DNA of 61,346 bases, the filler included, from Stramenopiles sp. TOSAG23-2 (taxonomy: Eukaryota): the NCBI GenBank assembly GCA_900128395.1. It is 4 parts of 4 records of this genome, joined end to end, with 100 filler letters (N's around TTAATTAATTAA, not from the genome) between each part and the next. Parts side by side here need not be neighbours in the genome. Positions count along the whole stretch, not along the records: positions 15,403 to 30,691 come from LT649718.1; 3 more parts are not named here. One strand, given 5' to 3'. The position numbers and the translations under genes were made by a program. Positions 1 through 44,929 of the stretch are shown in pieces. The notes beneath the pieces are model-generated. The model saw only the letters and a program-made list of their open reading frames with translations, was not told the DNA's origin and did not search any database. The stretch's first letter is position 1. Each line of letters starts with the position of its first letter.

Positions 1-444
1 AAATGCCAATTTTATTTTTCATATATTTGTGAAAAAATAGCAAATATCCGAAAATATAGGGAAAATGATGAATATTTCCCCATAGTGAATAGTGTTAAGT
101 GCACAGTCTTAGAGGGTAGCACTGCGCACCACACCACCACCACCACCGCCACAGAGAGGTATTTGTTTCTTCCTGGCGGCACCCATGTATTGAAAATTGA
201 ATATTATTAGCTATAACGAACTTGAGAAAAAAAATAATAGAAGTGGTCGATGTGTGTGTGTGAGTAGATATAGTTGTCATCTCTCATTGTTCATTATATA
301 TATATATAGAGAGAGAGAAGATATATCTATTTCATCGTTTTACATACAAGCATTCATTTTAATGTTTGCATCTGTATATATATATAACTAAATAACAAGA
401 AATTGGTATATATTATTATTTTACAATTTTTGATTAAAAAAACA

Positions 445-3400
445 ATGAAGAAAAATATTATGTGTTTAATTGATATAGCAAATGATGAAAAACTATTGCA
501 ACCTACTATATCAGCCAATACAACAACAACTGAAACTATTAGCGAAAATTATCTACAGGCACCAATATATGCAAACAAATTAAAAACAACGCTGGGTCGG
601 ATTGTATCATCATTCATTTCAAGTCACGAGCAGAATAAACATAATAATAATAGTAATAATAATAATACCACAACAAAATCTGAAACAAAGCAACTAAATT
701 TACAATGGTCATTTCGTTTATTTCATTCATTAAAGCAATTATCACCAAATGATCTAAGGCGAACTATCAATAACAATGTTAGTAGTAATAACAATAATGA
801 TAATAAAACTACCAACTCTGACAATGTATTAAATCATAATGATCACGATAACCAATATGTATATAAACAAATGATACAAAATACATGTTTTCATACTAGT
901 AATTTGATTTCGTTAACGAATTTTGAAAATAATTTATACGAATTTTTAAAACATATTAACAATAACAACAACAATGCAAATAATAGTTCATTTTTCGAAA
1001 ACAACAACAGCAATACCAGTTCTAATAGGAAAATGGTACAGCGACGTCATGGGCTGTTATGTAAAATATTGATGGATGTGTTAAAACCATCTGAATGGGT
1101 AGTAAATGAAGATAATAATAACAACGATGAAAATTTATATACTTTTTCCAACCATGATGATGATCAAGATAATGATACATTTGAACATAAATGTACAAAT
1201 TACATATTTTTATTTACACCGTATCCAACGAATATGAAACAATTTAAATTCTTGTTGAATACACCAAGGTCTACATCTGTTAGTAAAGCGACAGAAGGAA
1301 ACAAAAACAGTAAAATGAATTATGATGATAATGACGACAATAATAATTTTGAAAAACAAAAACAAATGGTTAATCATTCAATTGATGCAGTACATAAATT
1401 ACTTCAAAATTCATTTGAAAAAATGTCCATAAAATTAATATGGATCGATACAACAACATTGTCATCACTAAGTGTTAACAATAGTGGTATAAATGATGAT
1501 CATGTTTTAAACGTGGGTGTGCAACAGCTTCATCGTATTCGTCAGGAATCATATTTATATAGAACTGGTTGTATGAGACTTTCAAAGCAATTAGGCTTTA
1601 CAGGCTTTACCATGAATGAATTATTATTTAAATCAAAACTTATATCGATTGATCAAATGTTACAGGATCATTTTTTTCACACAGATAATTCAGATAATAC
1701 AATAAATAATGAATACAAGAACAAGAATAATATGAAAAAAGTAAGAGATACTAAACGCGAATATCAGATTTCACAACCAATTTTTCATGGAGAGATGTGC
1801 TTAAATAATATTGCCAATAAAAAGGTAGACGTTGATACTCGTATTAATGTTGAGGTAGTCACATTAGGTAATTGTGAAAATGCAACAAAAAAGGATCGGC
1901 ATAGCAATAGTTCTACGACTACTATCATGTCAAATACATTGGCACATAAATTTATACTTGAAAATGTTACATCATATGATCGATGTATGCATATGTATCA
2001 AACCAACTTGATTACGCATATATGCAAGCCATCGATTATGAATCAACATGCTGATAACAATATTATTGACGATGCAACAAATATCCAAAATTTCCAAACA
2101 TTAATGCTCTACTTATCAACAAATAAGAAATGTGCTGTTGTATCAGTATATGAGATGGAAGAGGATAATAGTACATTAGGGGAAGAACATCTCGCAGAAG
2201 TGGAAAATATTTTTAGCGATGATAATGATGATGATATTGAAAGTAGCAGCAGTGGTGATAGTGAACTTACAGCACCAACAACAACGACTATTACCACTAC
2301 TACAACAAGAACTATCACGGATCCCATCATGCAAAATGATAATCGGAATGAACCTAAAATGAAATTTGCCAAATTGTTAATGTTAAAACCTATGACTCCA
2401 ATTACTGCATTGGTATCCATATTGCCAACATACATAGATCAATTAATTGATCATAAAACGTTGGTATCCCCCGAACTTGCAGGTAATGTTCTACCAACTA
2501 GTGAAAATATGAACACCAATAAAAGTAATTGTGTCATTTCATCATTAAGTATTGATGGGTTTATGTGCCCACCGCCATCTACTATGTTAAATTTAAATAC
2601 GTATAAAGATGATGATACTGATAATAACGTGTATCCTCTACAAAATACTATTGCAAGCAAACATTCAAGTATTGTAGTTACTCGTAAACATACAAGAAAC
2701 AATGGTAGTGATAATCATCATAATAGTAATGATACTGATAGCAGTCAAATGACTATGATAATTTCTTCATCTTCTTCAGATATGGAAGATGAAGATGGAA
2801 TGTTTTCATCGTCCAATGTGTCAAATACGCAAGATGTATTAACAACAGATGATGATGATGGGGAGGAGGTTGGAAAAAAGAATGATGAAAGTGATATGAA
2901 CGATCAGGTACAAATCGAACTTAATGTTGATGCTGTAGGAGTAGTTGATGAAAATGATACACTCAATGTGGAGAATGGGCAATATAATACTGCACAAACA
3001 AATGATAGCAAGGTGAATTCACATCAATATGATATAATTTCAGATTTGATTCAAGAATATGGTATGGTAGATTCAATCCATTTCAAAAAAGGAAATGACC
3101 AGAAAAGTCATCTTAATAATGATGATGATGATGTGAATGAAGTATCTTTATCAAATTCAACAACGTTGGATGCAGGATCAACAAAAGTAGAGACCAACAA
3201 TACAACGACGAAGACGACAGCAACAATGAATACTTTTCTTAATGGTAATGAAACTCATAGTACCAACACAACAACCAATTCGCAGATGAAAGAACAATTG
3301 GAGAATAAACACAAACAAGAGAAACTAGTATTGTCATCACCATCAATTTCACCGGAAAAAGAAAGTGAAGCAGATAGAATTGCAAATGCATTCAGTGCAT

Positions 3401-4890
3401 TTAAAGAATCTTGTGAAAATTTATTGACTACAAATAGGAAATCTAATATGCGTGACTTATCCAAACAAATATTGCCCACATTGTATACAAAACTTGGAAG
3501 TAAAGATGGTAGAAACAAATATTTACCTGTAGTAACGTGTAAACAAATACGAACGTTTATTAAAGACCAGTTATTAATTGGTAAAACGGATTTGAAAAAG
3601 AAATATATGGCAAAAAAAAAACCAAAGCCGAAAGTGTTATCTACACCAACCGCATCTACTACTGAAACCAATACAGCACTCTTACGTGAAAATAAAATTT
3701 ATGATTACCAAATCCAAATATATTTAAGGATGGAAGTTGCATCGTTGGCTAGAATAGCAGAAGCTGCTTCTATGGATACACCAACAGCACCAACGTTAAA
3801 GCCACGTGATCCAATCAAAGCAAAGAATTTAGACGATATATGTTCACTATTACAATCGATTTCGTTTTTAATGGATGCAAATGCGAAAAAATCACATTTG
3901 CAAAATAACAACAATCGAAATCATATGAATAGTACTAATAATTACAACAATACTTGCAATATATCGATTAGTAAATTTCTAGACTTGTTTTTAGTTAATG
4001 ATTTTAAGCGTATTTTACCATTGACATTGTTTGAACTTTACGATGAGTTGAATATTGAATTATCGCCATCATTAGTCGCATTAAAATCAAAGTTATTGTT
4101 GCAAAATGTTCATATTGATCATAGTAGTAGCGAAGGTAATAATAGTAATCATAATAACAATAATAATAATTATACGCCATTAAATGGTAACAATAATTTA
4201 GAAAAAGCATTAGTCACGTCCCCTTCCATTTACCATGACATAAATAGTAATATGTCATTATCGCGTACAAATAGTGATAGTAGTACAAGTAGTGGCAACA
4301 ACAATACAACAACAATGATGCCATCAGATGGAACGATTGATGTCAAGAATAAGAAGAATAACAATAAAAATCATATTAAAGGTGTGACTGTAAATAGTTC
4401 CTTAGATCGTGCTGGTGGATTAGTAACAGAGAGAAAAGCACTTTTGAATAATTTTACTCAAAAGTTATCGAATCCAAAATTGTTATTTAGATCAGTGATT
4501 GTGCCAAAATCGAAAAAAACAAATCGTATGCCTCGAAAAAATGGTATTAATAAAAGTAATAATAATAATAATAACAAAACATTATTTGGATCAAAAAATA
4601 ATCGTAGGAGGAATCAAAGATCCAGATATACAAAACATGATAATTCTACGAATAGTAATAGCAATGTTAGAAATAATGTACGTAAAAGAAAAAAAGCAAG
4701 TAGTGGAACAACTAATATTAATATTGTTGAAGAAACACCAGAAAGAAAGAAAATTAAGAAAAAGAAAACAAAAAAGAAACAAGGTGGTGGTAATAATAGT
4801 AGTATTGTTGGTCAAGATAGCAGCAATAATAATGGCACTGACGGTAGTACAACATTAGTAAAGAGAAATAGTTTTCGGCAGTTGTTTTAA
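445..4890 (+). CDS. TICRR: Treslin/TICRR (Sld3)-like DNA replication initiation factor
   Basis: N-terminal motifs in Treslin order (MCLIDIA, LQWSFRLFHS, LMDVLKPSEW, NYIFLFTPYP, IKLIWIDTT); Sld3/Treslin-domain motifs KIYDYQIQIYLRME and LPLTLFELYDELNI; CDK-type site IVEETPERK near the C-terminus. First ATG at 445 (ORF track starts at TTG 403). Confidence 0.75.
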   Translation: MKKNIMCLIDIANDEKLLQPTISANTTTTETISENYLQAPIYANKLKTTLGRIVSSFISSHEQNKHNNNSNNNNTTTKSETKQLNLQWSFRLFHSLKQLSPNDLRRTINNNVSSNNNNDNKTTNSDNVLNHNDHDNQYVYKQMIQNTCFHTSNLISLTNFENNLYEFLKHINNNNNNANNSSFFENNNSNTSSNRKMVQRRHGLLCKILMDVLKPSEWVVNEDNNNNDENLYTFSNHDDDQDNDTFEHKCTNYIFLFTPYPTNMKQFKFLLNTPRSTSVSKATEGNKNSKMNYDDNDDNNNFEKQKQMVNHSIDAVHKLLQNSFEKMSIKLIWIDTTTLSSLSVNNSGINDDHVLNVGVQQLHRIRQESYLYRTGCMRLSKQLGFTGFTMNELLFKSKLISIDQMLQDHFFHTDNSDNTINNEYKNKNNMKKVRDTKREYQISQPIFHGEMCLNNIANKKVDVDTRINVEVVTLGNCENATKKDRHSNSSTTTIMSNTLAHKFILENVTSYDRCMHMYQTNLITHICKPSIMNQHADNNIIDDATNIQNFQTLMLYLSTNKKCAVVSVYEMEEDNSTLGEEHLAEVENIFSDDNDDDIESSSSGDSELTAPTTTTITTTTTRTITDPIMQNDNRNEPKMKFAKLLMLKPMTPITALVSILPTYIDQLIDHKTLVSPELAGNVLPTSENMNTNKSNCVISSLSIDGFMCPPPSTMLNLNTYKDDDTDNNVYPLQNTIASKHSSIVVTRKHTRNNGSDNHHNSNDTDSSQMTMIISSSSSDMEDEDGMFSSSNVSNTQDVLTTDDDDGEEVGKKNDESDMNDQVQIELNVDAVGVVDENDTLNVENGQYNTAQTNDSKVNSHQYDIISDLIQEYGMVDSIHFKKGNDQKSHLNNDDDDVNEVSLSNSTTLDAGSTKVETNNTTTKTTATMNTFLNGNETHSTNTTTNSQMKEQLENKHKQEKLVLSSPSISPEKESEADRIANAFSAFKESCENLLTTNRKSNMRDLSKQILPTLYTKLGSKDGRNKYLPVVTCKQIRTFIKDQLLIGKTDLKKKYMAKKKPKPKVLSTPTASTTETNTALLRENKIYDYQIQIYLRMEVASLARIAEAASMDTPTAPTLKPRDPIKAKNLDDICSLLQSISFLMDANAKKSHLQNNNNRNHMNSTNNYNNTCNISISKFLDLFLVNDFKRILPLTLFELYDELNIELSPSLVALKSKLLLQNVHIDHSSSEGNNSNHNNNNNNYTPLNGNNNLEKALVTSPSIYHDINSNMSLSRTNSDSSTSSGNNNTTTMMPSDGTIDVKNKKNNNKNHIKGVTVNSSLDRAGGLVTERKALLNNFTQKLSNPKLLFRSVIVPKSKKTNRMPRKNGINKSNNNNNNKTLFGSKNNRRRNQRSRYTKHDNSTNSNSNVRNNVRKRKKASSGTTNINIVEETPERKKIKKKKTKKKQGGGNNSSIVGQDSSNNNGTDGSTTLVKRNSFRQLF

Positions 4891-5072
4891 AAAAAAAATA
4901 CGTTCCGTAAAAAACAAGAATCGAATCTGCGAGAGAGTGCTTTGTATTTGGAGTTACACAAATATATTTTGTGGTGTGGTACACATTTTTATATTTTGAA
5001 TAATATTACGAAGTATATTTTATGTATTTTATATTTTTTATTTTTTCATGTACACAAAAAATAAAAACATTT

Positions 5073-5372
5073 TTATTTTTTACCTTCATCCCCACCGTCA
5101 CCTTCATTTGCGACTTCAATAATTTCATAAGTAGCACCTTCACCTAATCTATATACCAAATATATAACTGCATCATTTTCTACTTCTTGATCACCCACCG
5201 TAGCTTCATCTTCAAATACACGTTCCCTATCAGAACCAATCAATCTCAAAGTAGCTGGGTCTTTCGAGACAATACCACCTAATTTCGTTTTTACACTAGC
5301 AAAAGAGTCCGTTGGATTAACTCTTAAAAATATAGTATCCTTATGCCTTTTGACACGTAAATACATCGACAT
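5073..5372 (-). CDS. ELOB: Elongin B-like ubiquitin-fold protein
   Basis: MYLRVKRHKDTIF...TVGDQEVENDAVIYLVYR resembles plant/protist Elongin B-like proteins; 99 aa. Confidence 0.75.
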   Translation of the reverse strand: MSMYLRVKRHKDTIFLRVNPTDSFASVKTKLGGIVSKDPATLRLIGSDRERVFEDEATVGDQEVENDAVIYLVYRLGEGATYEIIEVANEGDGGDEGKK

Positions 5373-5807
5373 CTTTGGCTTTGAAAAGAATTTCTTTGTA
5401 TCTATTCAATATCTAATTCGTTCGGTTTACCTAGAAGAATAAAATTGAACAAAAAAAACAATTTAATAAAAGTGATAAATAAATGTAAATAATGATATGG
5501 AACTATGTAAATGAATTTACTAATAATTGTTTTTGTTATTTTAAAAAAACGTTAATTCATAAATTTTTCAAGAAAGAAGAGATTTTTCTTCTCTTCTTCT
5601 TCTCTCACTGCCCGGTGAATTTAATTTTTGGTATTCTAATTTCCCTTTCAAGTATAACTTATGTGTCATTTAATAGGTTAAGGTGAAAAATCTACAAATC
5701 TACCACAGCGAAAAAGAGAGAGATATTTTAATATTATCTATATTTAAAATATTTATAATATACAAATTGTACACTGTAAAAATCAAAAAAGTTTTAAAAC
5801 AATATTT

Positions 5808-11079: not shown

Positions 11080-11575
11080 AACAACAATGTGGTTGATATG
11101 TGTGTATATTGTACAATGCCAATGATACTTGTTCATATGTAAGGATGATGATGATGATCTCTTCTTTCTTATATTACCTATATTGATTTATATTAATGAT
11201 AGAATATATATGCATAATGGACTTTTGTTGAGTTTTGCTATATATTAAGGTATGTGTCAATTTAAGGATTGTTTAGATAAAAGAATGGATTTTTCTTACT
11301 CTAATTTCCCTTCCACAAGTATAATTTAGATGTATATTGATTCTTCGGATTGCTCCGGGCGAAGAGATAAACAACGGACAACGGTTAATTATCGTAAATA
11401 TATTACATTATTAAAGAGAAAGGTGAGAGAGAGGTAGATCAATATTCTACGTAGATACAGATAATATTCATTGGAAGTATATATATATATATATATATGT
11501 GTGTGTATATATTTTTAATTTGTAATCATTAAATAAGTAACTTTATTGAATAAACAAATCGGACAAACAGTTACG

Positions 11576-12829
11576 ATGTCAAATAAACAAGCTATTTCAC
11601 CGGATGAAGATACAATTGATACACCATTATTAAAATTTGAATCAAATTGGATGGGTGTATTATATGTATGGCCTATAACAACAATACAATTTTATAAAGG
11701 GGACCCAACGGCTGCAATAACCTATCTTAAAAATCGTTTGATCGAAGTTACAAAAGCAAATCCATGGATTGGTAGTAAAATTGTTAAAGACAAAGCGAAA
11801 CATGGGAAATTATTAGCAATGCGATATTCAAAAAGTAGTCCACCAATGGATGATATGTTTGAAGTAAATAATGAACTAGATATTCATGAAAATATGACAT
11901 ACACGGAAATGCAAGAAAAAATAATTGCAGCTCAAACCGTATGTCTTCCAAATGGTGGTGGATTGATCAAGAGTGGAAAGCCTGTTTGTAAACTTACAGT
12001 AGCGCCGAAAAAAGATGGAACTGGCTTTGCCGTTATTTTTTGCATGTCACATACAGTTGGCGATGGCCATACATATTATTCCATTTTAAATATGCTTTCC
12101 AATACAACTGAAATTACGGAAATGGATATTGTAAGAAAAGAAGAATTTAGTATGGAAGGTGTTGGGGCAAAAATGACTGGAGAAAAAGAATTTAAATTCA
12201 TGATGAATCCAGGATTATGCATGATGTGTTATTACATGGGTATAATGATGCGGAAGAAAATCGAGCCACAATGTTATTTGATCGATATGGAGAAATTAAA
12301 TATATTAAAAGAAAATGCTAAAAAAGAAACAGGTGCAGAAGAATATGTAAGCACAAATGATATTATAACAAGTGGTTTTGGAAGAGCAACTAAAGCACAA
12401 ATGTTAACAATGCCAATTAATATTCGAGGTAAAGAGGAAAAATGTAATAAAAATTTAGCTGGTAATTATTGGACTGGATTGATGTTTGGCGCAGATGCAC
12501 TTTCATCGCCAAATGGAATACGAAATAGTTTAAATGGACAGGCACCATATTCACGTTGTGTTTTACCTGGTTGTTGTATTAAAGGTAATTGGTCATCGAT
12601 GATAACCAATTGGTCTTCCATGTCAAATGGAAGTTTGGATATACCAGATTGTACACAAATATTACATGTACCATATTTAAATACGAAAGAAATGTTAGAA
12701 GATAGTTGCGTTATATTTAAAGCCCGTCCAAATGAAATTGCCGTCATGTTATTTTTACATAGTGTTACTTTGGATGAAATTAAACAAGAATTACCATTAG
12801 GGGAAAAAGTGTCAGAAAAAATGTTTTAA
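11576..12829 (+). CDS. CoA-dependent acyltransferase (HxxxD; BAHD/condensation-like)
   Basis: FAVIFCMSHTVGDGHTYY catalytic motif; YVSTNDII; PINIRG; LAGNY. Confidence 0.8.
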   Translation: MSNKQAISPDEDTIDTPLLKFESNWMGVLYVWPITTIQFYKGDPTAAITYLKNRLIEVTKANPWIGSKIVKDKAKHGKLLAMRYSKSSPPMDDMFEVNNELDIHENMTYTEMQEKIIAAQTVCLPNGGGLIKSGKPVCKLTVAPKKDGTGFAVIFCMSHTVGDGHTYYSILNMLSNTTEITEMDIVRKEEFSMEGVGAKMTGEKEFKFMMNPGLCMMCYYMGIMMRKKIEPQCYLIDMEKLNILKENAKKETGAEEYVSTNDIITSGFGRATKAQMLTMPINIRGKEEKCNKNLAGNYWTGLMFGADALSSPNGIRNSLNGQAPYSRCVLPGCCIKGNWSSMITNWSSMSNGSLDIPDCTQILHVPYLNTKEMLEDSCVIFKARPNEIAVMLFLHSVTLDEIKQELPLGEKVSEKMF

Positions 12830-15849: not shown

Positions 15850-17463
15850 GTGGCAATAATGATGTACCTAAATAATAGAATAACAAACATTATTTTTTTA
15901 ATAATAGTATTATTGATTTTATCAATATCAATGACAATTACATCTACTCCTTCTTCATCATCATCGTCAACATTTGAATTTAACTATAAATTTTTGAAAA
16001 AAAAAGTAAGAAAACAAATTGTCATCTTAGAGTCGTGGGTATCTAGTTTTATTAAGAATGGGAATATAAAAGAACATGAGGAGCCACATATTGCTCGTAG
16101 TAAAAAAATCAGAGTTTTTGAATCGGAAAAATATGGCTTAGGATATTGGGCTAGATTGCCAATTGCAGCAGGGGAAAAATTATTTTCAATACCATATGAT
16201 GCTTGCATTAATTATAATATTACTTTGGAAAATAATCATATGGAGAAAGATGATGAAATACGAACTCGTGTATACAATAAAATTATAGAAAATAGTGATA
16301 TTGGCTACGATGCTGCACTTGCACTTTACTTAGTTATAGAATCACGCCAAGCTACAGACGAATCAAAGTATTTTCCTTACCTGCATTTTTTACCGCATAA
16401 AATTAGCTCACCTTTATTATGGCGAATAGACCAATTAGAAGTATTGCAAGCTTCACCAACTAGATTACGTATTGAAAATTTCCAAAAATCATTGATTGAA
16501 ATATACAAATTTATCATTACCAATCCAACTATACAAACAAAAGTACCATCTATTATACATGGAAAACAGAGATTAACCTTGAAAGAATTTAAATGGGCAG
16601 TAGCAACTATATGGACAAGGTCTTTCTTTCTGGATATGAATGGATATTTACGTATACGAGATCAAAACAATATGATAAAAATTTATGATATTGAAGATCA
16701 TTATTATCCAGATGGAAGGAAGAAGCCAAATGTAAAAAATACAAAACCTAAATTAGTTGGAATTGAAAATGTAGATAAACAAACAACAACTAAAAGAGAT
16801 GAAAGGATATCAACGCAAATTTCTCAAACTGCGCGTATTATCATACCAATGCTAGATTTATTGAACCACAATAGGTCAGTATCACATACGTATAGATTTA
16901 ACCCAAAAAATAGAATGGTAGAATTTGTTGCTGCTAATGATATTCAGGAAGGGGATGAAATTACATTAAATTATGGATTATTTAGTAATCATGATTTGTT
17001 TTTGAATTATGGATTTATCGATCCAGAAAATAAATTTAATCATTTTCGAATACCAATAAAAGTACGTTTAATGTCATCATTAAATGTATTTCAACAACGA
17101 CTGTTAAATTGGCGTGTTCCAAATCCTAAGATTATTTTATCACATGATGGTAAGCCGATCGATAATACATTAATTGTTCTAAGGATTTTAACATTTGATG
17201 ATTTAGGTGGTAGTGCATATGAATTAAATCAATTATTGGACAATGTACCAACTACATCACAATTATTAAAAGTGAAAATGTATAAAGTTTTACATGATTT
17301 ATGCAATACAACTTTATCAACATATGGAACAGTGGTTGAATTAGATGAGATAGAACTTACGAGAAATCATCCAACATGGTATAAACTTGCATTGAAAATC
17401 AGAATAGAAGAGAAATTAATTTTAGAAAAATGTATGAATTATACAAAAAGTCAAGTGTTTTGA
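15850..17463 (+). CDS. SET-domain protein methyltransferase (Rubisco LSMT/SETD3/SETD6-like) with N-terminal hydrophobic segment
   Basis: YGLGYWA, SKYFPYLHFLP, FKWAVATIWTRSF, IIPMLDLLNH, GDEITLNYG, NHDLFLNYGF, C-terminal LALKIRIEEKLIL. First ATG about 15859. Confidence 0.9.
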   Translation: MAIMMYLNNRITNIIFLIIVLLILSISMTITSTPSSSSSSTFEFNYKFLKKKVRKQIVILESWVSSFIKNGNIKEHEEPHIARSKKIRVFESEKYGLGYWARLPIAAGEKLFSIPYDACINYNITLENNHMEKDDEIRTRVYNKIIENSDIGYDAALALYLVIESRQATDESKYFPYLHFLPHKISSPLLWRIDQLEVLQASPTRLRIENFQKSLIEIYKFIITNPTIQTKVPSIIHGKQRLTLKEFKWAVATIWTRSFFLDMNGYLRIRDQNNMIKIYDIEDHYYPDGRKKPNVKNTKPKLVGIENVDKQTTTKRDERISTQISQTARIIIPMLDLLNHNRSVSHTYRFNPKNRMVEFVAANDIQEGDEITLNYGLFSNHDLFLNYGFIDPENKFNHFRIPIKVRLMSSLNVFQQRLLNWRVPNPKIILSHDGKPIDNTLIVLRILTFDDLGGSAYELNQLLDNVPTTSQLLKVKMYKVLHDLCNTTLSTYGTVVELDEIELTRNHPTWYKLALKIRIEEKLILEKCMNYTKSQVF

Positions 17464-17812
17464 GATTTTTATAATAATCTCTTTTATATTATATTTATTG
17501 ATGGTTAAAAATCTAAGTGTTATATACTTCGTAATAAAATTTTAGTTCCCATGTTAAATACTACCGCTCAATACTCAATCTCAGGAATAATATTGTTAAT
17601 CCTCGCAATCTAAGAAGGATTTACTCCTACTAATAATAAAGCTCTCATGCGCCGCCGCAAGCTAATACTCTATATAAAGCACAAGTAGGTCTGAATCCAA
17701 TATATAATATATATATATATATATACTCCGGGAGTGCCAAATAATAATAAGAGATACAAAATATTTGATGTTTTTAAAAAAAACTCTCTCTCTCTCTCTC
17801 TCTCTCTCATCT

Positions 17813-20800
17813 CTAAAAAAACTTTGTTGTAACTTGTTTTATCATCTCACAATTGATGGCGTCCCATGCTGTTAAATTAACACTATTTTGTCTCTTAATA
17901 TTTAATGCTATAGATTTTAAACCACTATCTATTTCTACTGCTTTCTTTTGCTTGTCCTTCTTCTTCTTATCATTTTTATTTGTAATTTTCATTTCATTTT
18001 TCAATGTTGATAATGATTCAATAATAAAATCATCAAATATTTGTATCTTATTATTATTTGGCACGGACAATTTATATCTCTCACTCAACGCTAACATGTC
18101 AATTAATTTTGATCTAATTTTAATAGGTAATATTTCGACCATGTCCTCTTTAATTATATCTAATTGCATGTTAATCGAATATGGTAGTGGCCAAATCATA
18201 TGTGCTTCTTCACCAAGGTTGTTATTATTATTATTATTATTATTATTGAAATGGAGAATATATTTTGCCATCAATATTCGTCGAATAATATGTAGATATT
18301 TTTTAGGCAATATCTCATCTTTTCGGCGAATATATTGCTCATAGTTACTTTTTGCATGGTTTATGCAAGACCAGACCAATGATTGTTTATCATAACGTGT
18401 TTCCATTTCATTTTTAACTGCACGAATCCAATCAAATTCTTCAAATTTTATTGATATATAATTAATTTTTGAGTAAAATAATTCAAACATGGTTAAATTA
18501 TTACTCGACATCATTAAAAAGGCATGGCTGCATTCAATACCGACAATATCAATTTCTGGTATCTCTCCATCTCTTTCAAAAGTCATTCGAAAATTTTTAC
18601 TGATACTAGACTTCATTGAATAATATCTCTCTGTTTTGTGTACAAATATGCAATATACATCATGATCAGAATTTTTATGCGATGTGCCAAGACTACGACT
18701 AGATAATTCAGATGCAATTATGATTTTTATTTCCAATTCTTTTTCTATTTGACGCAATTTGTCCATTACAATATTTCCATGATTTTCAGTTATCTCTGTG
18801 CTCCCACCGAAATAGTTTTCTGTCGTTGGTGCGTCTTCTTGATTTCTTTCTTTTGTTTCTGTTATGTTAAGAATACGTATTGATTTTATCAAATTCATCA
18901 GTTTATTAATATCCACTTCATCTTTTCGTATGCTTAGCCCTTTCTGTTTTCTAGAAGTGTTAATAGTTTCAATACTTGAAATGATATAATCAGTCATTTC
19001 ATTTGCAGTCTTTAATAATTTTTCTGGATTAAATTCACCAACTAATGGCCTTGTTCTTCGTATATCCATAATGGACTTATGTTGTGAGGAATCGGTTACA
19101 TAAGTAACGATAGGATCCTCATAATTAACTATGCGTTGTAACTCAAAGATTTTGTGATATGCATGATAGAAATACTTTGCTATACCATCTTCAATATTCG
19201 GAGGAATTCTACAATTTTTTAAAGAACCACCTTCCTTCTCATTCTCAGAAGATTCTCGGTATGGCTTTAATAATTTTCTTACTTGATACAACCTTTCATG
19301 TATAAATCCAACATATTGGTTAATACATCTCGTGGTTAAAAATTCTTGTCGAATAGCACGTAATTTTGACCACATTTTTGTAACATGAATAACTTTGTTT
19401 GGATTTACAAATAAAAATTCAATATTTCTAGGATTTCCCTTAGCCAGTTCTAATACAAATGTGCAAATTTCTTTACCACCATATTCAATTTCACCAGCTT
19501 TATCAGCACCCATAGGCTTATGCACATGTCGTTCGAATGTAGTGGAACATTTTTTCGACCCCAATATTGAACGTGTTGAATTTGTAAAACATATGAAATA
19601 ATCTTCATCACTAGATTTTGTATGTAAATTGTACATGAAACTGCCACATCGTATCATAAACGATACTTCAACTTTACCCAATTGATTTTGTAAATCCAAA
19701 TGCTCAAGCATAACATTTAATTCAGTAGCCGTTCCATTATTGTTATCACTGATATTTGTTGAATCATCATCATCATTCTTATAATCAAGATTTTCCTCCA
19801 ACCATTTTGTACATAGTAAATCTCGAATTTGATCTTTCCATACATTGCAGTTATTTATGGTCTTTTTTATAACTATTTGCTTGGTAGCAAATGCATCCAT
19901 TTCATCCTTTGTTTTCTTGTTGTTATTTTTTTTATTTTTTGAAATTTCTTTTACTTGCAAATTAATATTTTCAATAACTGTCAATAAAGCTGATATTTGT
20001 TCTTCCTTCTTTTCAAACGACATGGATAATGCAATTGAATCCATAACACTATCTGTATTATGTACCGTTTTCATTGCGATTTTCAATTGTTCTATTAAAT
20101 TTAAAGCAAATTGTATAGCAGGTTGATATATTTTATCAGGGATTTTTGATAAATCACAACTATTTATATTTCTTAACAGTCCATACGCTTGACCCACACA
20201 GCTTTTAATAAAAATATTACTTTGACGAAGTACTGTTTGATCTATAATTTCTTTCAATTTCCTCCATTCATTAGAATTGAATAGAATATTATAAGATTTA
20301 CCATCAAACCGAGTTTCATTTAGTAAGTTGAACATACGACAGTCTCCTCGTTCAATTTTGCGTATAGCCTCTCCAATTTCCAAGAGTTGTATGGAACGGA
20401 TATTCAATTTTTGAACACTGATTACTTCTTTCTTTTCAATTTCGTTTCCACGTTTCTCACCTGTTTTTGCAGCAAGATATTGCGTTAACGTCTTCTTCAT
20501 TGGCTTAATTAAAAGTTCATCACAACTTCCACAATATAATGCATACAAATCATAATTAGCAGTATTATTATCATTTGTAATTGTTGTTTCGTCTACAACC
20601 CCAACCCCTTTCTTTTTACGATAATTAGAGAGCAATTTCATAAAAGATAGTGTATCTTCACATAATAAAATTAATCTTATGCCAGGTAATTGGTTTTCAA
20701 TGATAGTAACAATTTCGTGTATATGTGGTTTCAATATTGTCTTTAAATCCATGTTGTTAGTAATATTGTCTGATGTATTTCTTGTCAATGTGATGTATGA

Positions 20801-20836
20801 GAAGGGTCTGCATATAAAATTCATATACATGTCCAT
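17813..20836 (-). CDS. Multi-domain RlaP/YcgL-like (PF10127-type) Pol-beta nucleotidyltransferase
   Basis: GSFMYNLHTKSSDEDY...ELAKGNPRNIEFLF (~aa 398) and ELSSRSLGTSHKNSDHDVYCIFVH...NNLTMFELFYS...KKYLHIIRRIL (~aa 710), plus a degenerate N-terminal copy. Alternative start at 20752. Confidence 0.8.
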   Translation of the reverse strand: MDMYMNFICRPFSYITLTRNTSDNITNNMDLKTILKPHIHEIVTIIENQLPGIRLILLCEDTLSFMKLLSNYRKKKGVGVVDETTITNDNNTANYDLYALYCGSCDELLIKPMKKTLTQYLAAKTGEKRGNEIEKKEVISVQKLNIRSIQLLEIGEAIRKIERGDCRMFNLLNETRFDGKSYNILFNSNEWRKLKEIIDQTVLRQSNIFIKSCVGQAYGLLRNINSCDLSKIPDKIYQPAIQFALNLIEQLKIAMKTVHNTDSVMDSIALSMSFEKKEEQISALLTVIENINLQVKEISKNKKNNNKKTKDEMDAFATKQIVIKKTINNCNVWKDQIRDLLCTKWLEENLDYKNDDDDSTNISDNNNGTATELNVMLEHLDLQNQLGKVEVSFMIRCGSFMYNLHTKSSDEDYFICFTNSTRSILGSKKCSTTFERHVHKPMGADKAGEIEYGGKEICTFVLELAKGNPRNIEFLFVNPNKVIHVTKMWSKLRAIRQEFLTTRCINQYVGFIHERLYQVRKLLKPYRESSENEKEGGSLKNCRIPPNIEDGIAKYFYHAYHKIFELQRIVNYEDPIVTYVTDSSQHKSIMDIRRTRPLVGEFNPEKLLKTANEMTDYIISSIETINTSRKQKGLSIRKDEVDINKLMNLIKSIRILNITETKERNQEDAPTTENYFGGSTEITENHGNIVMDKLRQIEKELEIKIIIASELSSRSLGTSHKNSDHDVYCIFVHKTERYYSMKSSISKNFRMTFERDGEIPEIDIVGIECSHAFLMMSSNNLTMFELFYSKINYISIKFEEFDWIRAVKNEMETRYDKQSLVWSCINHAKSNYEQYIRRKDEILPKKYLHIIRRILMAKYILHFNNNNNNNNNNLGEEAHMIWPLPYSINMQLDIIKEDMVEILPIKIRSKLIDMLALSERYKLSVPNNNKIQIFDDFIIESLSTLKNEMKITNKNDKKKKDKQKKAVEIDSGLKSIALNIKRQNSVNLTAWDAINCEMIKQVTTKFF

Positions 20837-21205
20837 TTTGAAAATATACTATTAGTACATGTATGTACTATATATAATATCTTTAAGATGTATAATAATA
20901 TATCGATAGTGCTATGTGCCTATAATAATAATAATAATATGTGCCTCTGGTGATGTGCTGGTGGCACACTGGCACACCACCACAAGAAAAAAAAAAAAAG
21001 AAGAAGAAGAAAGAGAAGAAGAAGAGAAGCGGAAAGCTGGAAGAAAGCCTCTGGACGGAAAGCCAGAGAAAGCAGAAGCAGAAGTAGCTAGTGCCTGAGT
21101 GCAGGAATGCCAGACTAGCAGAAGAAGAAGAAGAAAAAAAGAAAAGCTACAGCCGGAGACAAAATACTATATTGTTATTGAATTTTACCCAAACAGAATA
21201 AAACA

Positions 21206-41395: not shown

Positions 41396-44300
41396 ATGCA
41401 AATGTTACATTATTGGAATCCTATAAAAAAGGCCATAACGTTCATACTATTTTTTTTTCTTTTTTGGCAAATAAATTTAATAATAGTAGTTACATCGTCG
41501 TCCAGTAGTAGTAGTAGTAGCAATAGTAACAACAATAACAATGGTCAACTAATAGGTATTCCAACGCCTGTAACAGATGCATTTGAAGGTCGTGTCTACA
41601 CATACTATATAAAATTGTCAAAACGCCCATATTCTTCGTCCATTCCATCAGTAAATGTCAATGTAAATATTATAGATCAAGGAGACAATGGTGGTGATTT
41701 AAAACTATTTTGCTCATTGGCAGATACTACTTTAAATCAAAAGCAGTTTGAGTTTAGTTTCGAAACATGGGATATACCTATACCTGTAAATGTAAAAGTC
41801 GCTACAAATGACTATACGCTAAGAAAGTATTCCCCGATCACTACGTGTCGGATAAATCATAAGGTGACAAGCGAAGATGCATTGTACTATAATCACAACG
41901 ATACACTTTTGAATATATCGATAGTGAGTCGAGGTTGCGGTTTGGGTGAATATCATGGTATCGACCGTCTAAAATATGTTACATATAAAAATACTAATAT
42001 GGGAGAAAATGAATGTATATGTGGCCCACAATATTATAAATCAAACGATGTAACAAACTGTACAAATTGTAATTTAAAGGAAGGAATTGTTTGTAATCAA
42101 ATAGGTGTTGGTAATATGCCTCCAATTGTTAAGAATTTTTGGAGATATGGTCTCCCAAATAGAAATGATATTGAAAATATTTATAAATGTCCATATGACG
42201 ATACATGTATAGGTGGAAATAATACTAAAAATAGATGTAGTATTGGACATCATGAACAGTTTCCTTTATGTGCAAAATGCGAAATAGATTATGTATTGAT
42301 TAATGAAAAATGCATTTTATGCAATGGCACCAAGTCTTACAACGAAAAACAAAATATATTTACAATGTCAACTATATTGCCAGTACATTCATTGAAATTA
42401 ATGTACATCTTATTAGGTTCAACCATAATGTTAATTTTTGTTTTTGTTTTATATATTACAAAACGTGCTATATCAAAAGAGGCCGAAGAGGAATTAAAAG
42501 CAAAACTAATTGGTTTAAATTTAGATACCATTTTCAACAGTTCTACAGAACATCATTTAACAATGGATGCATTTATAAATATGCTAAATGCACACCATGA
42601 AAATTTTTCTATCGATGAAATTCATCTTTTATTTCAAACTGTAGATAAAGATCAAACTGGATATATAGATAAAATGCATTTGTTATTATATGCAACTAAT
42701 TCGGGATGGGTGGATGTTGAAAATATAGAACGTAAACGTAAAGCGTATAAATGGCGGATAAAACGAAATAAAAAAAGAAATAAATTGTTAGGAACAGCTT
42801 ATATGAAATTCAAATTATTATTTACATACTTGCAAATGTTATCTATATTTGGAATTACATTTAGTAATACAATTAAATGGCCTAGATTAATAAAACGAAC
42901 GATGGGTTATTTAGAATTTACAACATTTGATTTGTATTCTTTCCCCTTTGCAGAATTTATAGATTGCCATATGTATGTAAGCTTTTTACATCATTTTATA
43001 TATAATGTTGCAATATTTCCTGCCATCATATTGCTTATCGTTTCCTCATATGGTATTGGAATTGCATATCGTAAATTAAAAAAACGCCTATATAAAAATT
43101 CACAAGATAAAAGCAAAACTGGTTCTGTTAAATATACAAATGACAGTATGGTTGCAAATATTTATACTATGATAAGTTTTACTGCATATGTATTATATAC
43201 AGGGGTTTTAACACGAATGATACAAATGTTAACATGTACAAAATTTATTACAGGTAATAATGGAGAAGCAAAATACTTTTTAAATGCTGATTTTTCAATA
43301 CAATGCTACAACAATGATGAAAATAACTATTGGACTTTTTTTGCATTAAGTCTTACATGTTGTGTGTTCTATGGTCTCGGATATCCAGCAGTACAATTAA
43401 TTTTATTGCATCACAATCGTAAATATTTATATTATGACGAGGAAGAAAATATGAAAAGAAATAAAACGCTAAGACAAGAAGATGAGTTTATAGTAAGACG
43501 TCATCGTGCTGTTAAAAAACGATTAGGGGCTACGTATAGCAAATATAACCCAGATTCGTACTATTTTGAGATTGTTGATTTATTACGGCGTTTTATATTG
43601 TGTGGCATTTTACTCTTTCTGAACAATATTTACAACAGTAACCCAAATGTTCTAGATTTATCTATTATACAAATGTTATGTGGCATATTCATTTGTTTCG
43701 CATGGGTATTGGCAATAGCCTACAAGCGACCATATACGGCATATTGGGACAATATCTTAAGCTTAACTTTGTCAGCTCATTTATGTTTTTTGTTACTTGT
43801 TGGAATGTGTCTAACACTTTGGGATGCAAAACACGGCCCATTGTTATCCTCAGATATTGCAATAGACGATAACAACGGTGTATCGCATTATTTTTTAATG
43901 GTGACTATATTCTTACTTTCAAGTATGGGAATATGTATGATATTTGGTTTTGTGCTATTATTTATTTCCATGTCTTGTACTCAACATTTGAAATGTTGCG
44001 CATCCTTGTATAACCATTTAATGACAGAGGAAGAACAAGAGCAACAAGATCAAGTGCTTGATCATTTTGAATATGCAAGCGAATGGCTTGATAGTCAAAA
44101 ACAAATATTAGGGATAATGACAGCAGATGATGTCGTAGATAGCTTAAGTGAATGTAAAAAGGTATTAATGAAAACGCTTGAAAATGAAGAAAATCATTTA
44201 CAAGAAAGTTTCGATAAATGGAATGAAAAATTACAACATCATGAAAAGCAACATAATAAATTAAGTTTTGAAATTGACGAACTTAAAAAAGTTTTAGAGA

Positions 44301-44929
44301 ATCCAAGTTTATCTGGAAAATTAAAAGTGGTAACAAAAAAAGAATTAGATGAAAAAATCGATGCATTAATGAAAAACGCTAAAGCACAGGCTTATGCAGC
44401 GCAAGAGACTAAAGAGTATAAAAATAAAATTAAAGAAAAAGGAAATAGAGGCAAAATGATCAAGAAATTGAAAGCGAAAAAAAAGAAAATGGTTAAAGCA
44501 GGAGATGTATATAAAGGTGGTAGTCCAACAGCAAGCTCACGAAGTAGAGACGCAAGCCCAACAAGAAATGATAGAAGATTCAAAGGAAGATCAAGCAAAA
44601 AACAAACGCTTGAACCTTCTATATTGCCTAGTTGTAAGGAACTATGTACATGTATTTGTTTTTGCTGTTGTAATAAGAGGAAGTGTGATAAATGTTACAA
44701 ACAATGTGATAAAATGTTATACAAACGAAAAACGATAATAGGACCAAATACACATGAAATAAGAGATGTAATATCTGTCAGAAATAACGATGATGCATTG
44801 TTTGGTAAAACACAAAAAAAGTTTATAGTTGGTGAAAAAAAAATAGTGAAGAAAAAAAGAGTAAAAATACGAAGTGTAAAGAAGAGGAAGAAAGCTGTTG
44901 CAGCAGCAGAAAAAGTGCTGGGTGTTTGA
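41396..44929 (+). CDS. Multi-pass membrane protein: signal peptide, Ig-like domain, Cys-rich repeats, EF-hand, TRP-C/7TM-like region
   Basis: CICGPQYY, IYKCP...C.GG, C..GH...LCAKC; LFQTVDKDQTGYID; FKLLFTYLQM, FLNADFSIQCY, YYFEIVDLLRR, RPY...WDN; basic coiled-coil tail. Confidence 0.75.
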   Translation: MQMLHYWNPIKKAITFILFFFLFWQINLIIVVTSSSSSSSSSNSNNNNNGQLIGIPTPVTDAFEGRVYTYYIKLSKRPYSSSIPSVNVNVNIIDQGDNGGDLKLFCSLADTTLNQKQFEFSFETWDIPIPVNVKVATNDYTLRKYSPITTCRINHKVTSEDALYYNHNDTLLNISIVSRGCGLGEYHGIDRLKYVTYKNTNMGENECICGPQYYKSNDVTNCTNCNLKEGIVCNQIGVGNMPPIVKNFWRYGLPNRNDIENIYKCPYDDTCIGGNNTKNRCSIGHHEQFPLCAKCEIDYVLINEKCILCNGTKSYNEKQNIFTMSTILPVHSLKLMYILLGSTIMLIFVFVLYITKRAISKEAEEELKAKLIGLNLDTIFNSSTEHHLTMDAFINMLNAHHENFSIDEIHLLFQTVDKDQTGYIDKMHLLLYATNSGWVDVENIERKRKAYKWRIKRNKKRNKLLGTAYMKFKLLFTYLQMLSIFGITFSNTIKWPRLIKRTMGYLEFTTFDLYSFPFAEFIDCHMYVSFLHHFIYNVAIFPAIILLIVSSYGIGIAYRKLKKRLYKNSQDKSKTGSVKYTNDSMVANIYTMISFTAYVLYTGVLTRMIQMLTCTKFITGNNGEAKYFLNADFSIQCYNNDENNYWTFFALSLTCCVFYGLGYPAVQLILLHHNRKYLYYDEEENMKRNKTLRQEDEFIVRRHRAVKKRLGATYSKYNPDSYYFEIVDLLRRFILCGILLFLNNIYNSNPNVLDLSIIQMLCGIFICFAWVLAIAYKRPYTAYWDNILSLTLSAHLCFLLLVGMCLTLWDAKHGPLLSSDIAIDDNNGVSHYFLMVTIFLLSSMGICMIFGFVLLFISMSCTQHLKCCASLYNHLMTEEEQEQQDQVLDHFEYASEWLDSQKQILGIMTADDVVDSLSECKKVLMKTLENEENHLQESFDKWNEKLQHHEKQHNKLSFEIDELKKVLENPSLSGKLKVVTKKELDEKIDALMKNAKAQAYAAQETKEYKNKIKEKGNRGKMIKKLKAKKKKMVKAGDVYKGGSPTASSRSRDASPTRNDRRFKGRSSKKQTLEPSILPSCKELCTCICFCCCNKRKCDKCYKQCDKMLYKRKTIIGPNTHEIRDVISVRNNDDALFGKTQKKFIVGEKKIVKKKRVKIRSVKKRKKAVAAAEKVLGV

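Follow-up and report, generated by a model that had tools for sequence, protein, structure and literature searches.

How does a marine stramenopile come to carry three nucleotidyltransferase (NTase)-like modules in a single chain, and what might such a protein do? The gene that raises this question comes from LT649718.1, a record of the GenBank assembly GCA_900128395.1 of Stramenopiles sp. TOSAG23-2, and was studied on the minus strand within a stretch of 61,346 nucleotides that joins four parts of this genome with filler letters (hereafter the window, along which all positions are counted). ORF listing and translation reveal a single open reading frame (ORF) at 17813..20836, which encodes 1007 aa from an ATG start and has no internal stop. 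Its anatomy and homology place it, as far as sequence comparison can tell, in the RlaP (PF10127) branch of the Pol-beta NTases. We consider it fairly probable that the gene specifies an expressed nuclear eukaryotic enzyme of this branch, built of three modules, of which the second and third would be active on RNA and would have their origin in a bacterial gene pair.

RlaP enzymes were reportedly named in 2016 by Burroughs and Aravind, and the name reflects the presence of genes for RNA ligases or RNA repair in the gene neighborhood. At the P. fluorescens locus L073, the gene order is Ro60, RtcB, RlaP, and RtcA.

Anatomy of the three modules

The gene and its parts are as follows (M, module).

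17813..20836, minus strand: whole gene, an intronless 1007-aa ORF with its stop codon at 17813-17815 (ORF call, translation, and colinear RNA-library contigs)
19742..20752, minus strand: module 1 (M1), aa 29-365, a putatively dead NTase-like domain plus helical bundle, apparently a degenerate M2-type copy (hhalign and AlphaFold)
18827..19741, minus strand: module 2 (M2), aa 366-670, a divergent RlaP-type NTase, predicted active (Pfam, hhalign, and conserved residues)
17816..18826, minus strand: module 3 (M3), aa 671-1007, a classical RlaP domain, predicted active (Pfam PF10127, hhalign, and invariant residues)
19601..19645, minus strand: M2 active-site motif GSFMYNLHTKSSDED, residues 398-412 (G398-S399 ... 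D410-E-D412; translation and conservation)
19484..19486, minus strand: M2 third carboxylate E451 (E-x-x-G), invariant in alignment A2 and paired with D763 of M3 in BLASTP
18656..18709, minus strand: M3 active-site motif ELSSRSLGTSHKNSDHDV, residues 710-727 (E710-x-S-S713-R ... S-D724-H-D726-V; translation and conservation)
18548..18550, minus strand: M3 third carboxylate D763 (D763-I-V-G766), D/E in 12/12 rows of A2 and matching the invariant D-x-x-G of classical RlaPs
18293..18304, minus strand: K845-K-Y-L (residues 845-848) in the M3 helical domain, aligned to the invariant K-K-Y of classical RlaPs
18218..18247, minus strand: ten-Asn run N864-N873, a loop insert in the M3 helical domain (translation; low-confidence block in the predicted model)

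An initial annotation of this locus had described an intronless ORF with three NTase-plus-helical modules, and we find that this description holds, with every motif it quoted present where it had been placed. Its assignment to PF10127, for which it expected 2-3 HMMER matches, is likewise confirmed: the whole protein matches the Pfam family at E 1.8e-26 (93.8 bits) in 2 stretches. M3 alone scores E 3.8e-23 and 82.9 bits over profile positions 5-166 of 249, above the gathering cut-off of 23 bits. Compared with 12 classical bacterial RlaPs, M3 gives an hhalign match of 100% (E 9.8e-44), and it retains A708, S713, R714, S723, D724, D726, N780, and K845, which are invariant in 38 RlaP sequences including bacterial ones.

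Classical RlaPs (e.g. that of the P. fluorescens/P. aeruginosa rtcB-rlaP-rtcA operon, or NrdC.11 of phage T4) consist of an N-terminal NTase domain and, after it, a helical domain forming a cleft. M3 likewise has an NTase and a helical domain, and it retains their invariant A..E.[GS]SR..G..S.DSD.D, D-x-x-G, N, KKY, and R residues. Unlike in these proteins, the domain here forms the C-terminal third of a eukaryotic protein of 1007 aa, is interrupted by a poly-Asn insert, and lacks a partner in an operon; M3 also has Ser in place of the first Gly of the GS, and SDHD in place of SDYD. The ten-Asn run is missing from the relatives P0003 and P0004.

M2 is more divergent. Cut as residues 371-670, it matches PF10127 at E 0.006 (16.7 bits), and in the whole protein it forms the second stretch; the M2 modules of relatives reach 23-48 bits. 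Profile comparison links M2 to classical RlaPs (hhalign 93.6%, E 2.1e-7) and to M3 (hhalign 94%, E 1.6e-7; BLASTP 24% identity, E 0.004). The RlaP active-site residues are present in both modules, i.e. G398 S399, D410 D412, and E451 in M2, and S712 S713, D724 D726, and D763 in M3. In sets of 12 and 43 relatives, G398, S399, D410, D412, and E451 vary little or not at all, and the catalytic residues of M3 are conserved across the same sets.

M1 (cut as 1-370) has no RlaP match in Pfam at E up to 10, nor does any other Pfam family match it. Its link to RlaP runs only through M2, to which it aligns over 243 columns (hhalign 87%, E 3.7e-6), compared with 11% for M3 and 5.5% for classical RlaP; the M1 hidden Markov model (HMM) also cross-matches the M2 regions of relatives (e.g. 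P0003 at 7e-10 and P0057 at 4e-10). The segments that the initial annotation quoted for M1 are YDLYALY at residues 95-101 (bases 20554..20534) and E153-IGEAIRKIERGD..MFNLL172 at bases 20380..20321, the latter segment (EIGEAIRKIERGD..MFNLL) covering residues 153-172. The columns aligned to the GS of the active modules read L64-S65, and those aligned to DxD read D96-L-Y98; neither is conserved in relatives. Since the closest profile match of M1 is M2 and its GS/DxD columns are unconserved, M1 is, judged on its sequence, an M2-type copy that is catalytically dead; the initial annotation had likewise described an inactive copy that lacks the GS/DxD site.

Searches of other resources with the protein added little: no family was found in NCBIfam, and a PDB search by sequence returned only a chance thioredoxin row (E 0.9), the PfRlaP structure not being found in that PDB set.

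Of residues 1-28 (window 20753-20836), the first 27 are unaligned with relatives and predicted to be disordered, with a predicted local distance difference test score (pLDDT) below 50. A second Met at residue 29 opens the conserved part of the ORF. The RNA-library contig from run X1 extends to 20874, past both candidate start codons.

Predicted structures

Structure prediction, which had been suggested as a check on the three-module description, supports it. The AlphaFold model of the whole protein, built with a 43-row alignment, has a pLDDT of 85.6 and a predicted template modeling score (pTM) of 0.67, and that of M1 alone reaches 88.5 and 0.85, respectively. In these models the order of helices and strands is identical in M1, M2, and M3: each module is predicted to begin with the beta-alpha elements of an NTase and to continue with long helices.

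Foldseek ranks the aminoglycoside NTase ANT(4') first for the whole model (6un8_A, E 1.1e-3, TMt 0.44) and also returns 3c18, OAS2 (9h1z_B, E 5e-3, probability 0.38), and HalB of the Hailong system (9dbj, E 0.028). For M1 it returns Tam41 (7ecd, E 8.4e-4) together with 3c18, HalB, KNTase, and AadA, with E values ranging from 8e-4 to 0.1. A PDB structure comparison with M1 yields NTases only at Z 5-7.3 (LinB 7.3, 3c18 6.7, and ANT(4') 6.0-6.3). The wide structure search (VIA-align) with M1 was uninformative, as it mostly retrieved four-helix bundles that match residues 178-276; its sole whole-domain row is LinB (Z 7.2, rmsd 8.4). As such, these model-based matches fit a Pol-beta NTase fold with a helical domain and prove little alone.

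Correspondence with a bacterial gene pair

We wondered how two differing RlaP-type modules came to stand side by side. According to the initial annotation, bacterial RlaPs often occur as adjacent genes of two subtypes, and that such pairs exist is borne out by a prokaryote genome scan with the 12 classical RlaPs, in which 588 of 600 pattern matches were confirmed and the best 80 loci were analysed. Seven of these 80 loci (L035, L040, L042, L060, L068, L077, and L079; about 3700-5770 in each) carry a second, divergent RlaP ORF of ~340-380 aa directly upstream on the same strand. The upstream ORFs match PF10127 at E 1e-16 to 2e-18, over profile positions ~9-155 only. The L040 pair shares an ATGA overlap. 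Neighbors of the pair include RtcB and LigT (L040), NADAR (L042), HD-domain proteins (L042 and L060), and a TIR-methyltransferase (L068).

The upstream type resembles M2 most closely. By hhalign it matches M2 at 96.6% (E 4.9e-10) and classical RlaP at 90% (E 1.4e-6), compared with 27% for M3 and 3% for M1. Module HMMs built from twelve sequences and run against the ORFs of the 80 bacterial loci are also specific. The M2 HMM matches 7/7 upstream ORFs (26-31 bits) and touches 52 classical ORFs at a median of 14.4 bits (maximum 26.4), the M3 HMM matches 0/7 upstream and 80/80 classical ORFs (75-153 bits), and the M1 HMM matches 0/7 upstream ORFs. Further, the module order M2 then M3 equals the bacterial gene order upstream then classical.

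Trees reveal the same division. A FastTree analysis of 152 module rows separates 57 M2 and 7 upstream sequences from 74 M3-like and 14 classical sequences (support 98). An unrooted IQ-TREE analysis under LG+C20 with posterior mean site frequencies (62 chosen rows, 260 columns) recovers the split between upstream plus M2 and classical plus M3 at 100/99, with clade supports of 98/97 for eukaryotic M3, 86/62 for M2, and 100/100 for the upstream type.

The bacterial pair thus shares with the eukaryotic protein the order of its subtypes, and by HMM, hhalign, and tree M2 corresponds to the upstream and M3 to the classical gene. The pair differs in that its members are separate, overlapping genes, found in Firmicutes-type genomes and one Planctomycetaceae metagenome-assembled genome, with no equivalent of M1. 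M3 would accordingly be named the counterpart of the classical bacterial and phage RlaP, M2 that of the divergent paralogue whose gene immediately precedes the classical one in some bacteria, and M1 a duplicate of the M2 type that would have lost its metal-binding carboxylates and been kept as a conserved pseudo-enzyme module. Given HMM specificity, hhalign, and the tree split, a history in which a bacterial pair fused, and an M2-type module then duplicated and decayed into M1, appears to be the best supported.

Eukaryotic relatives and recurring architecture

The three-module layout is not confined to this gene. P0002 is 99% identical to the protein, P0003 (a EukProt sequence) 55%, and P0004 (a JGI sequence, named 'predicted nucleotidyltransferase') 41%, and in all of these the three modules align end to end. 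P0003, P0006, and P0008 come from EukProt transcriptomes. A HMMER search of 1.84 billion representatives returned 925 proteins at E <= 1e-3, 133 at <= 1e-10, and 32 at <= 1e-30; when Pfam was run on 40 relatives, RlaP was found in 38, and at least 2 RlaP stretches in 17.

Among the 150 matches listed out of these 925, module HMMs distinguish an M1-M2-M3 class of ~800-1080 aa, an M1-M2 class of ~560-630 aa, single M3-like proteins of ~260 aa, and a few M2-M2 proteins (P0074, P0114, and P0118). M1 is matched in 39/41 relatives that have at least 250 aa ahead of the M2 start, and in 13/15 of those that stand outside the M1 profile. Because of these 39 matches among 41, M1-M2 is, by profile comparison, a conserved unit. 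Many eukaryote-derived proteins share the M1-M2(-M3) layout; the protein is not a one-off, and we found no paper that characterises the architecture.

Some relatives carry further domains or modules. P0027 has a YTH domain and an NTP_transf_2-like module, followed by M1 and M2, and P0028 and P0036 combine M1-M2-M3 with a C-terminal Methyltransf_24 (S-adenosylmethionine-dependent methyltransferase) domain. P0074, P0114, and P0118 (554-611 aa) have two M2-type modules, both of which retain GS and the acidic pair in P0074. The first modules of these three proteins lie basally in the M2 group, and the proteins may show the state that preceded loss of the M1 active site.

Other searches define how far the family could be traced. 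Homologue searches with the whole protein and alignment A4 gave 3-4 close relatives and were hampered by low-complexity words in the candidate list, and a region search gave 9. In the ESM Atlas we find only phage and bacterial RlaP clusters of ~270 aa (score 0.92) and no eukaryotic taxa. Pattern scans for the M2 type with alignment A2 produced 51 pattern matches in 185,579 prokaryote species genomes and 44 in IMG/VR viral contigs, and a scan of the latter with M2 alone produced 11; 0 were confirmed in each case, and as these scans depend on patterns, divergent relatives may escape them. By tblastn against phages, M3 gave no match, and the 5 Lak-phage records retrieved with M2 (E 9e-4) are not counted as matches. 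Alignment A3 (146 rows), in which single-domain rows fell out of place, was set aside, and A6 held no stretch conserved enough for a scan.

Predicted function

The function of classical RlaPs guides our prediction. According to a December 2025 preprint, the first to present biochemistry of the family, two Pseudomonas RlaPs add 1-2 nucleoside monophosphates (NMPs) to RNA 3'-OH ends, with damaged RNA preferred, and restore aminoacylation of over-damaged tRNA after ligation; they carry three strictly conserved Asp (PMC12776372). The same prediction of an RNA-end role for RlaP is made in papers from the Aravind lab (PMC7824862, PMC6514570). On eukaryotes, the preprint remarks only that they have 'a small number' of RlaP (PMC12776372).

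By homology, M3 would extend RNA 3' ends, and M2 probably does so too. Each of the 2 modules would use its GS...DxD...D/E center for a template-free addition of one or a few NMPs to an RNA 3'-OH. Candidate substrates are damaged RNAs, e.g. tRNAs short of nucleotides, from which a ligase would then restore a functional molecule. For M1, conserved but dead, the most likely role is to bind RNA or to position the active modules, i.e. it may offer an RNA-binding or scaffolding surface. The YTH fusion in the relative P0027 fits an RNA substrate.

Genomic context and expression

The gene lies among eukaryotic housekeeping genes, on a segment of a nuclear chromosome that is not a contaminant. Nearby ORFs of at least 200 aa encode a SET/LSMT-like protein, a GH31 glycosidase, a CHD-type SNF2 ATPase, a kinesin, a protein kinase, RPN1, and MCM, and the G+C content is 28-37% throughout the window. 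The initial annotation had concluded from the Asn inserts that the gene is integrated in the host genome. The gene is eukaryotic, and for this its neighbors (CHD-type SNF2, kinesin, RPN1, MCM, and protein kinase) are better evidence than the Asn run.

Parts of the gene are present in 22 public runs from 9 studies, 15 of them recorded as RNA; most are metatranscriptomes of marine or seawater origin, and some were PolyA-selected. A contig of 2001 nt (X1, record 8) is colinear with the gene over 18888-20874, another of 1130 nt (X2, record 16) over 19722-20851, and a PolyA library (X6) contains several pieces of ~200 nt with 0-1 differences. No intron joints are supported in the RNA-library contigs over the gene. 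One joint from 17983 to 19908 in an X2 contig was considered as an intron and rejected as too weak (depth 2.9, side 24). Expression of the gene is likely and stays unproven, because RNA libraries may contain DNA.

The convergent neighbor at 15850-17463 (+) encodes a SET-domain/Rubisco-LSMT-like protein. The P0003 gene model (1341 aa) joins the NTase to a homologue of this neighbor, which implies that NTase and SET-domain genes are neighbors in both organisms; the joined model is probably a false fusion, or else the orientation differs.

Between the two convergent genes, and 3' of both, the intergenic stretch 17529-17786 has a summed contig depth of 317 (X1), 117 (X2), and 164 (X20), compared with 3-14 over the gene. 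It also shows numerous loose ends and small indels in contigs, which suggests a repeat or a sequence common to other organisms; it has no tRNA or Rfam match. Runs of (TA)n and (CT)n occur at about 17700-17810. No tRNA or Rfam family is found in the window. Three further ORFs, at 403-4890 (+), 41396-44929 (+), and 11546-12829 (+), encode 1495, 1177, and 427 aa, respectively, without a Pfam family at E <= 1e-5.

Competing explanations

Several observations weigh against a three-module RNA enzyme of bacterial-pair origin, some of them bearing on function and others on descent. M2 on its own lies below the 23-bit Pfam cut-off, and the fold matches are weak and point to NTases in general (Foldseek E at best 1.1e-3 for the whole model and 8.4e-4 for M1; TM 0.15-0.48). 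The predicted function would rest on homology to a family whose biochemistry comes from one preprint, and no studies of eukaryotic RlaPs were found in the literature examined. No RNA ligase gene is present among the 17 ORFs of at least 200 aa scanned in the window, and the possible DNA content of the RNA libraries bears on expression. As to descent, only 7 upstream-type sequences are available, all from the best 80 loci of one scan. The tree is unrooted and drew a long-branch warning, the upstream-type sequences sitting on a long branch (2.8). In the approximately unbiased (AU) test, a tree in which the eukaryotic modules M2 and M3 are held together is not rejected (delta lnL 20.3, p 0.073). 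Because of the unrooted tree, the long branch, and this AU result, the pair-fusion history is not proven.

The last points lead directly to internal triplication, in which one RlaP entered an early eukaryote and duplicated twice, the likeness of M2 to the upstream type being convergence or long-branch attraction. The AU test keeps the corresponding tree, the upstream-type branch is long and a meeting of long branches is flagged, M1 clearly duplicated within this lineage, and relatives with two M2-type modules exist (P0074, P0114, and P0118). However, the best tree parts M2 from M3 and joins M3 to the classical RlaPs, the HMM matches are reciprocal and specific (7/7 upstream ORFs for M2 and 0/7 for M3), M2 aligns better with the upstream type than with M3, and the eukaryotic module order is that of the bacterial genes. 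Overall, we regard triplication as unlikely. The proposal of the initial annotation that two subtypes were acquired and fused is supported in that M2 matches the upstream and M3 the classical type, and is tempered by the AU result for the rival tree; the grouping of both active modules together, named at the outset as evidence for a recent internal duplication, is not what the best tree shows, although the AU test does not reject it. Its third copy is inactive as described, and seems to have arisen by duplication of an M2-type module, not by separate acquisition.

The protein could also make signals instead of mending RNA. In this alternative, the protein would resemble OAS2/OAS3 or CD-NTase/HalB, with the dead module sensing nucleic acid and the active modules making oligo- or cyclic-nucleotide immune messengers. 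OAS2 and OAS3 (vertebrate 2'-5' oligoadenylate synthetases) string Pol-beta NTase units together, with the N-terminal unit or units catalytically dead. The tandem of inactive and active NTases reproduces this layout, and Foldseek rows exist for OAS2 and HalB with the whole model, and for HalB with M1. Yet these matches to signaling-type folds are weak and common to all Pol-beta NTases, and a Pfam scan of the protein (E up to 1) yields no OAS1_C or SMODS domain. OAS proteins belong to another NTase family with no sequence match here, and their products are free 2'-5' oligoadenylates, in contrast to the extended RNA ends that RlaP makes. M3, moreover, retains nearly all invariant residues of classical RlaPs, for which RNA 3'-end extension is the sole activity reported (PMC12776372). 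A signaling enzyme is thus improbable in our view, about on a par with triplication.

That the protein modifies small molecules, in the manner of aminoglycoside or lincosamide NTases, is very improbable: ANT(4') heads the Foldseek rows for the whole model, and LinB, AadA, and ANT match M1 at Z 5-7.3, their domains following one another as NTase then helical, but the likeness of ANT(4'), LinB, AadA, and PDB 3c18 holds at the fold level only (identity 6-13%, rmsd 5-9 A), the superfamily as a whole shares this fold, the protein has the sequence profile of RlaP, and aminoglycoside and lincosamide NTase families, whose members (ANT(4'), LinB, AadA) act on small molecules, show no sequence-level match in Pfam or the PDB. 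A non-working gene (contamination, pseudogene, or chimeric ORF) is already contradicted and deserves virtually no credence: the SET-fused P0003 model means that models in the multi-module RlaP family can err, and the N-terminal 27 residues are predicted disordered, but 1007 codons are open, two other organisms have proteins that match over the full length (55% and 41% identity), flanking eukaryotic genes are of like composition, and RNA-library contigs span the gene without joints.

The initial annotation is, on balance, partly supported: its anatomy for the most part holds, its account of the origin is plausible, and its RNA-repair or signaling function is something that we, too, can only infer.

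Implications for RlaP proteins and RNA repair

The family itself is known, and the three-module eukaryotic form with its pseudo-enzyme module, together with the link to a bacterial pair, appears to be undescribed. A full-text literature search, which lay outside the founding 2016 paper and the supplements of the preprint, turned up neither a eukaryotic multi-module RlaP nor a bacterial RlaP pair. Eukaryotes hold a conserved multi-module RlaP with one pseudo-enzyme module and two differing, predicted active modules, and an overlooked pair of bacterial RlaP paralogues is its likely source.

If the activity predicted for M2 and M3 is real, the family offers a testable entry into RNA-end repair or ribotoxin defense in protists, and it would represent a second, independent design of a dead NTase plus a live NTase beside OAS2 and OAS3. 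A bolder reading, which we put forward tentatively and consider rather doubtful, is that many protists possess an undescribed RNA-damage response enzyme, in which a bacterial RlaP pair has been placed in one chain behind a dead NTase 'sensor', in an independent OAS2/3-like layout, with the two sites acting sequentially on cleaved tRNA or rRNA ends or making a signal. Were this true, no nucleotidyltransferase dedicated to RNA repair would have been known from eukaryotes before this protein, and in bacteria the upstream and classical RlaPs would together form a heterodimeric enzyme.

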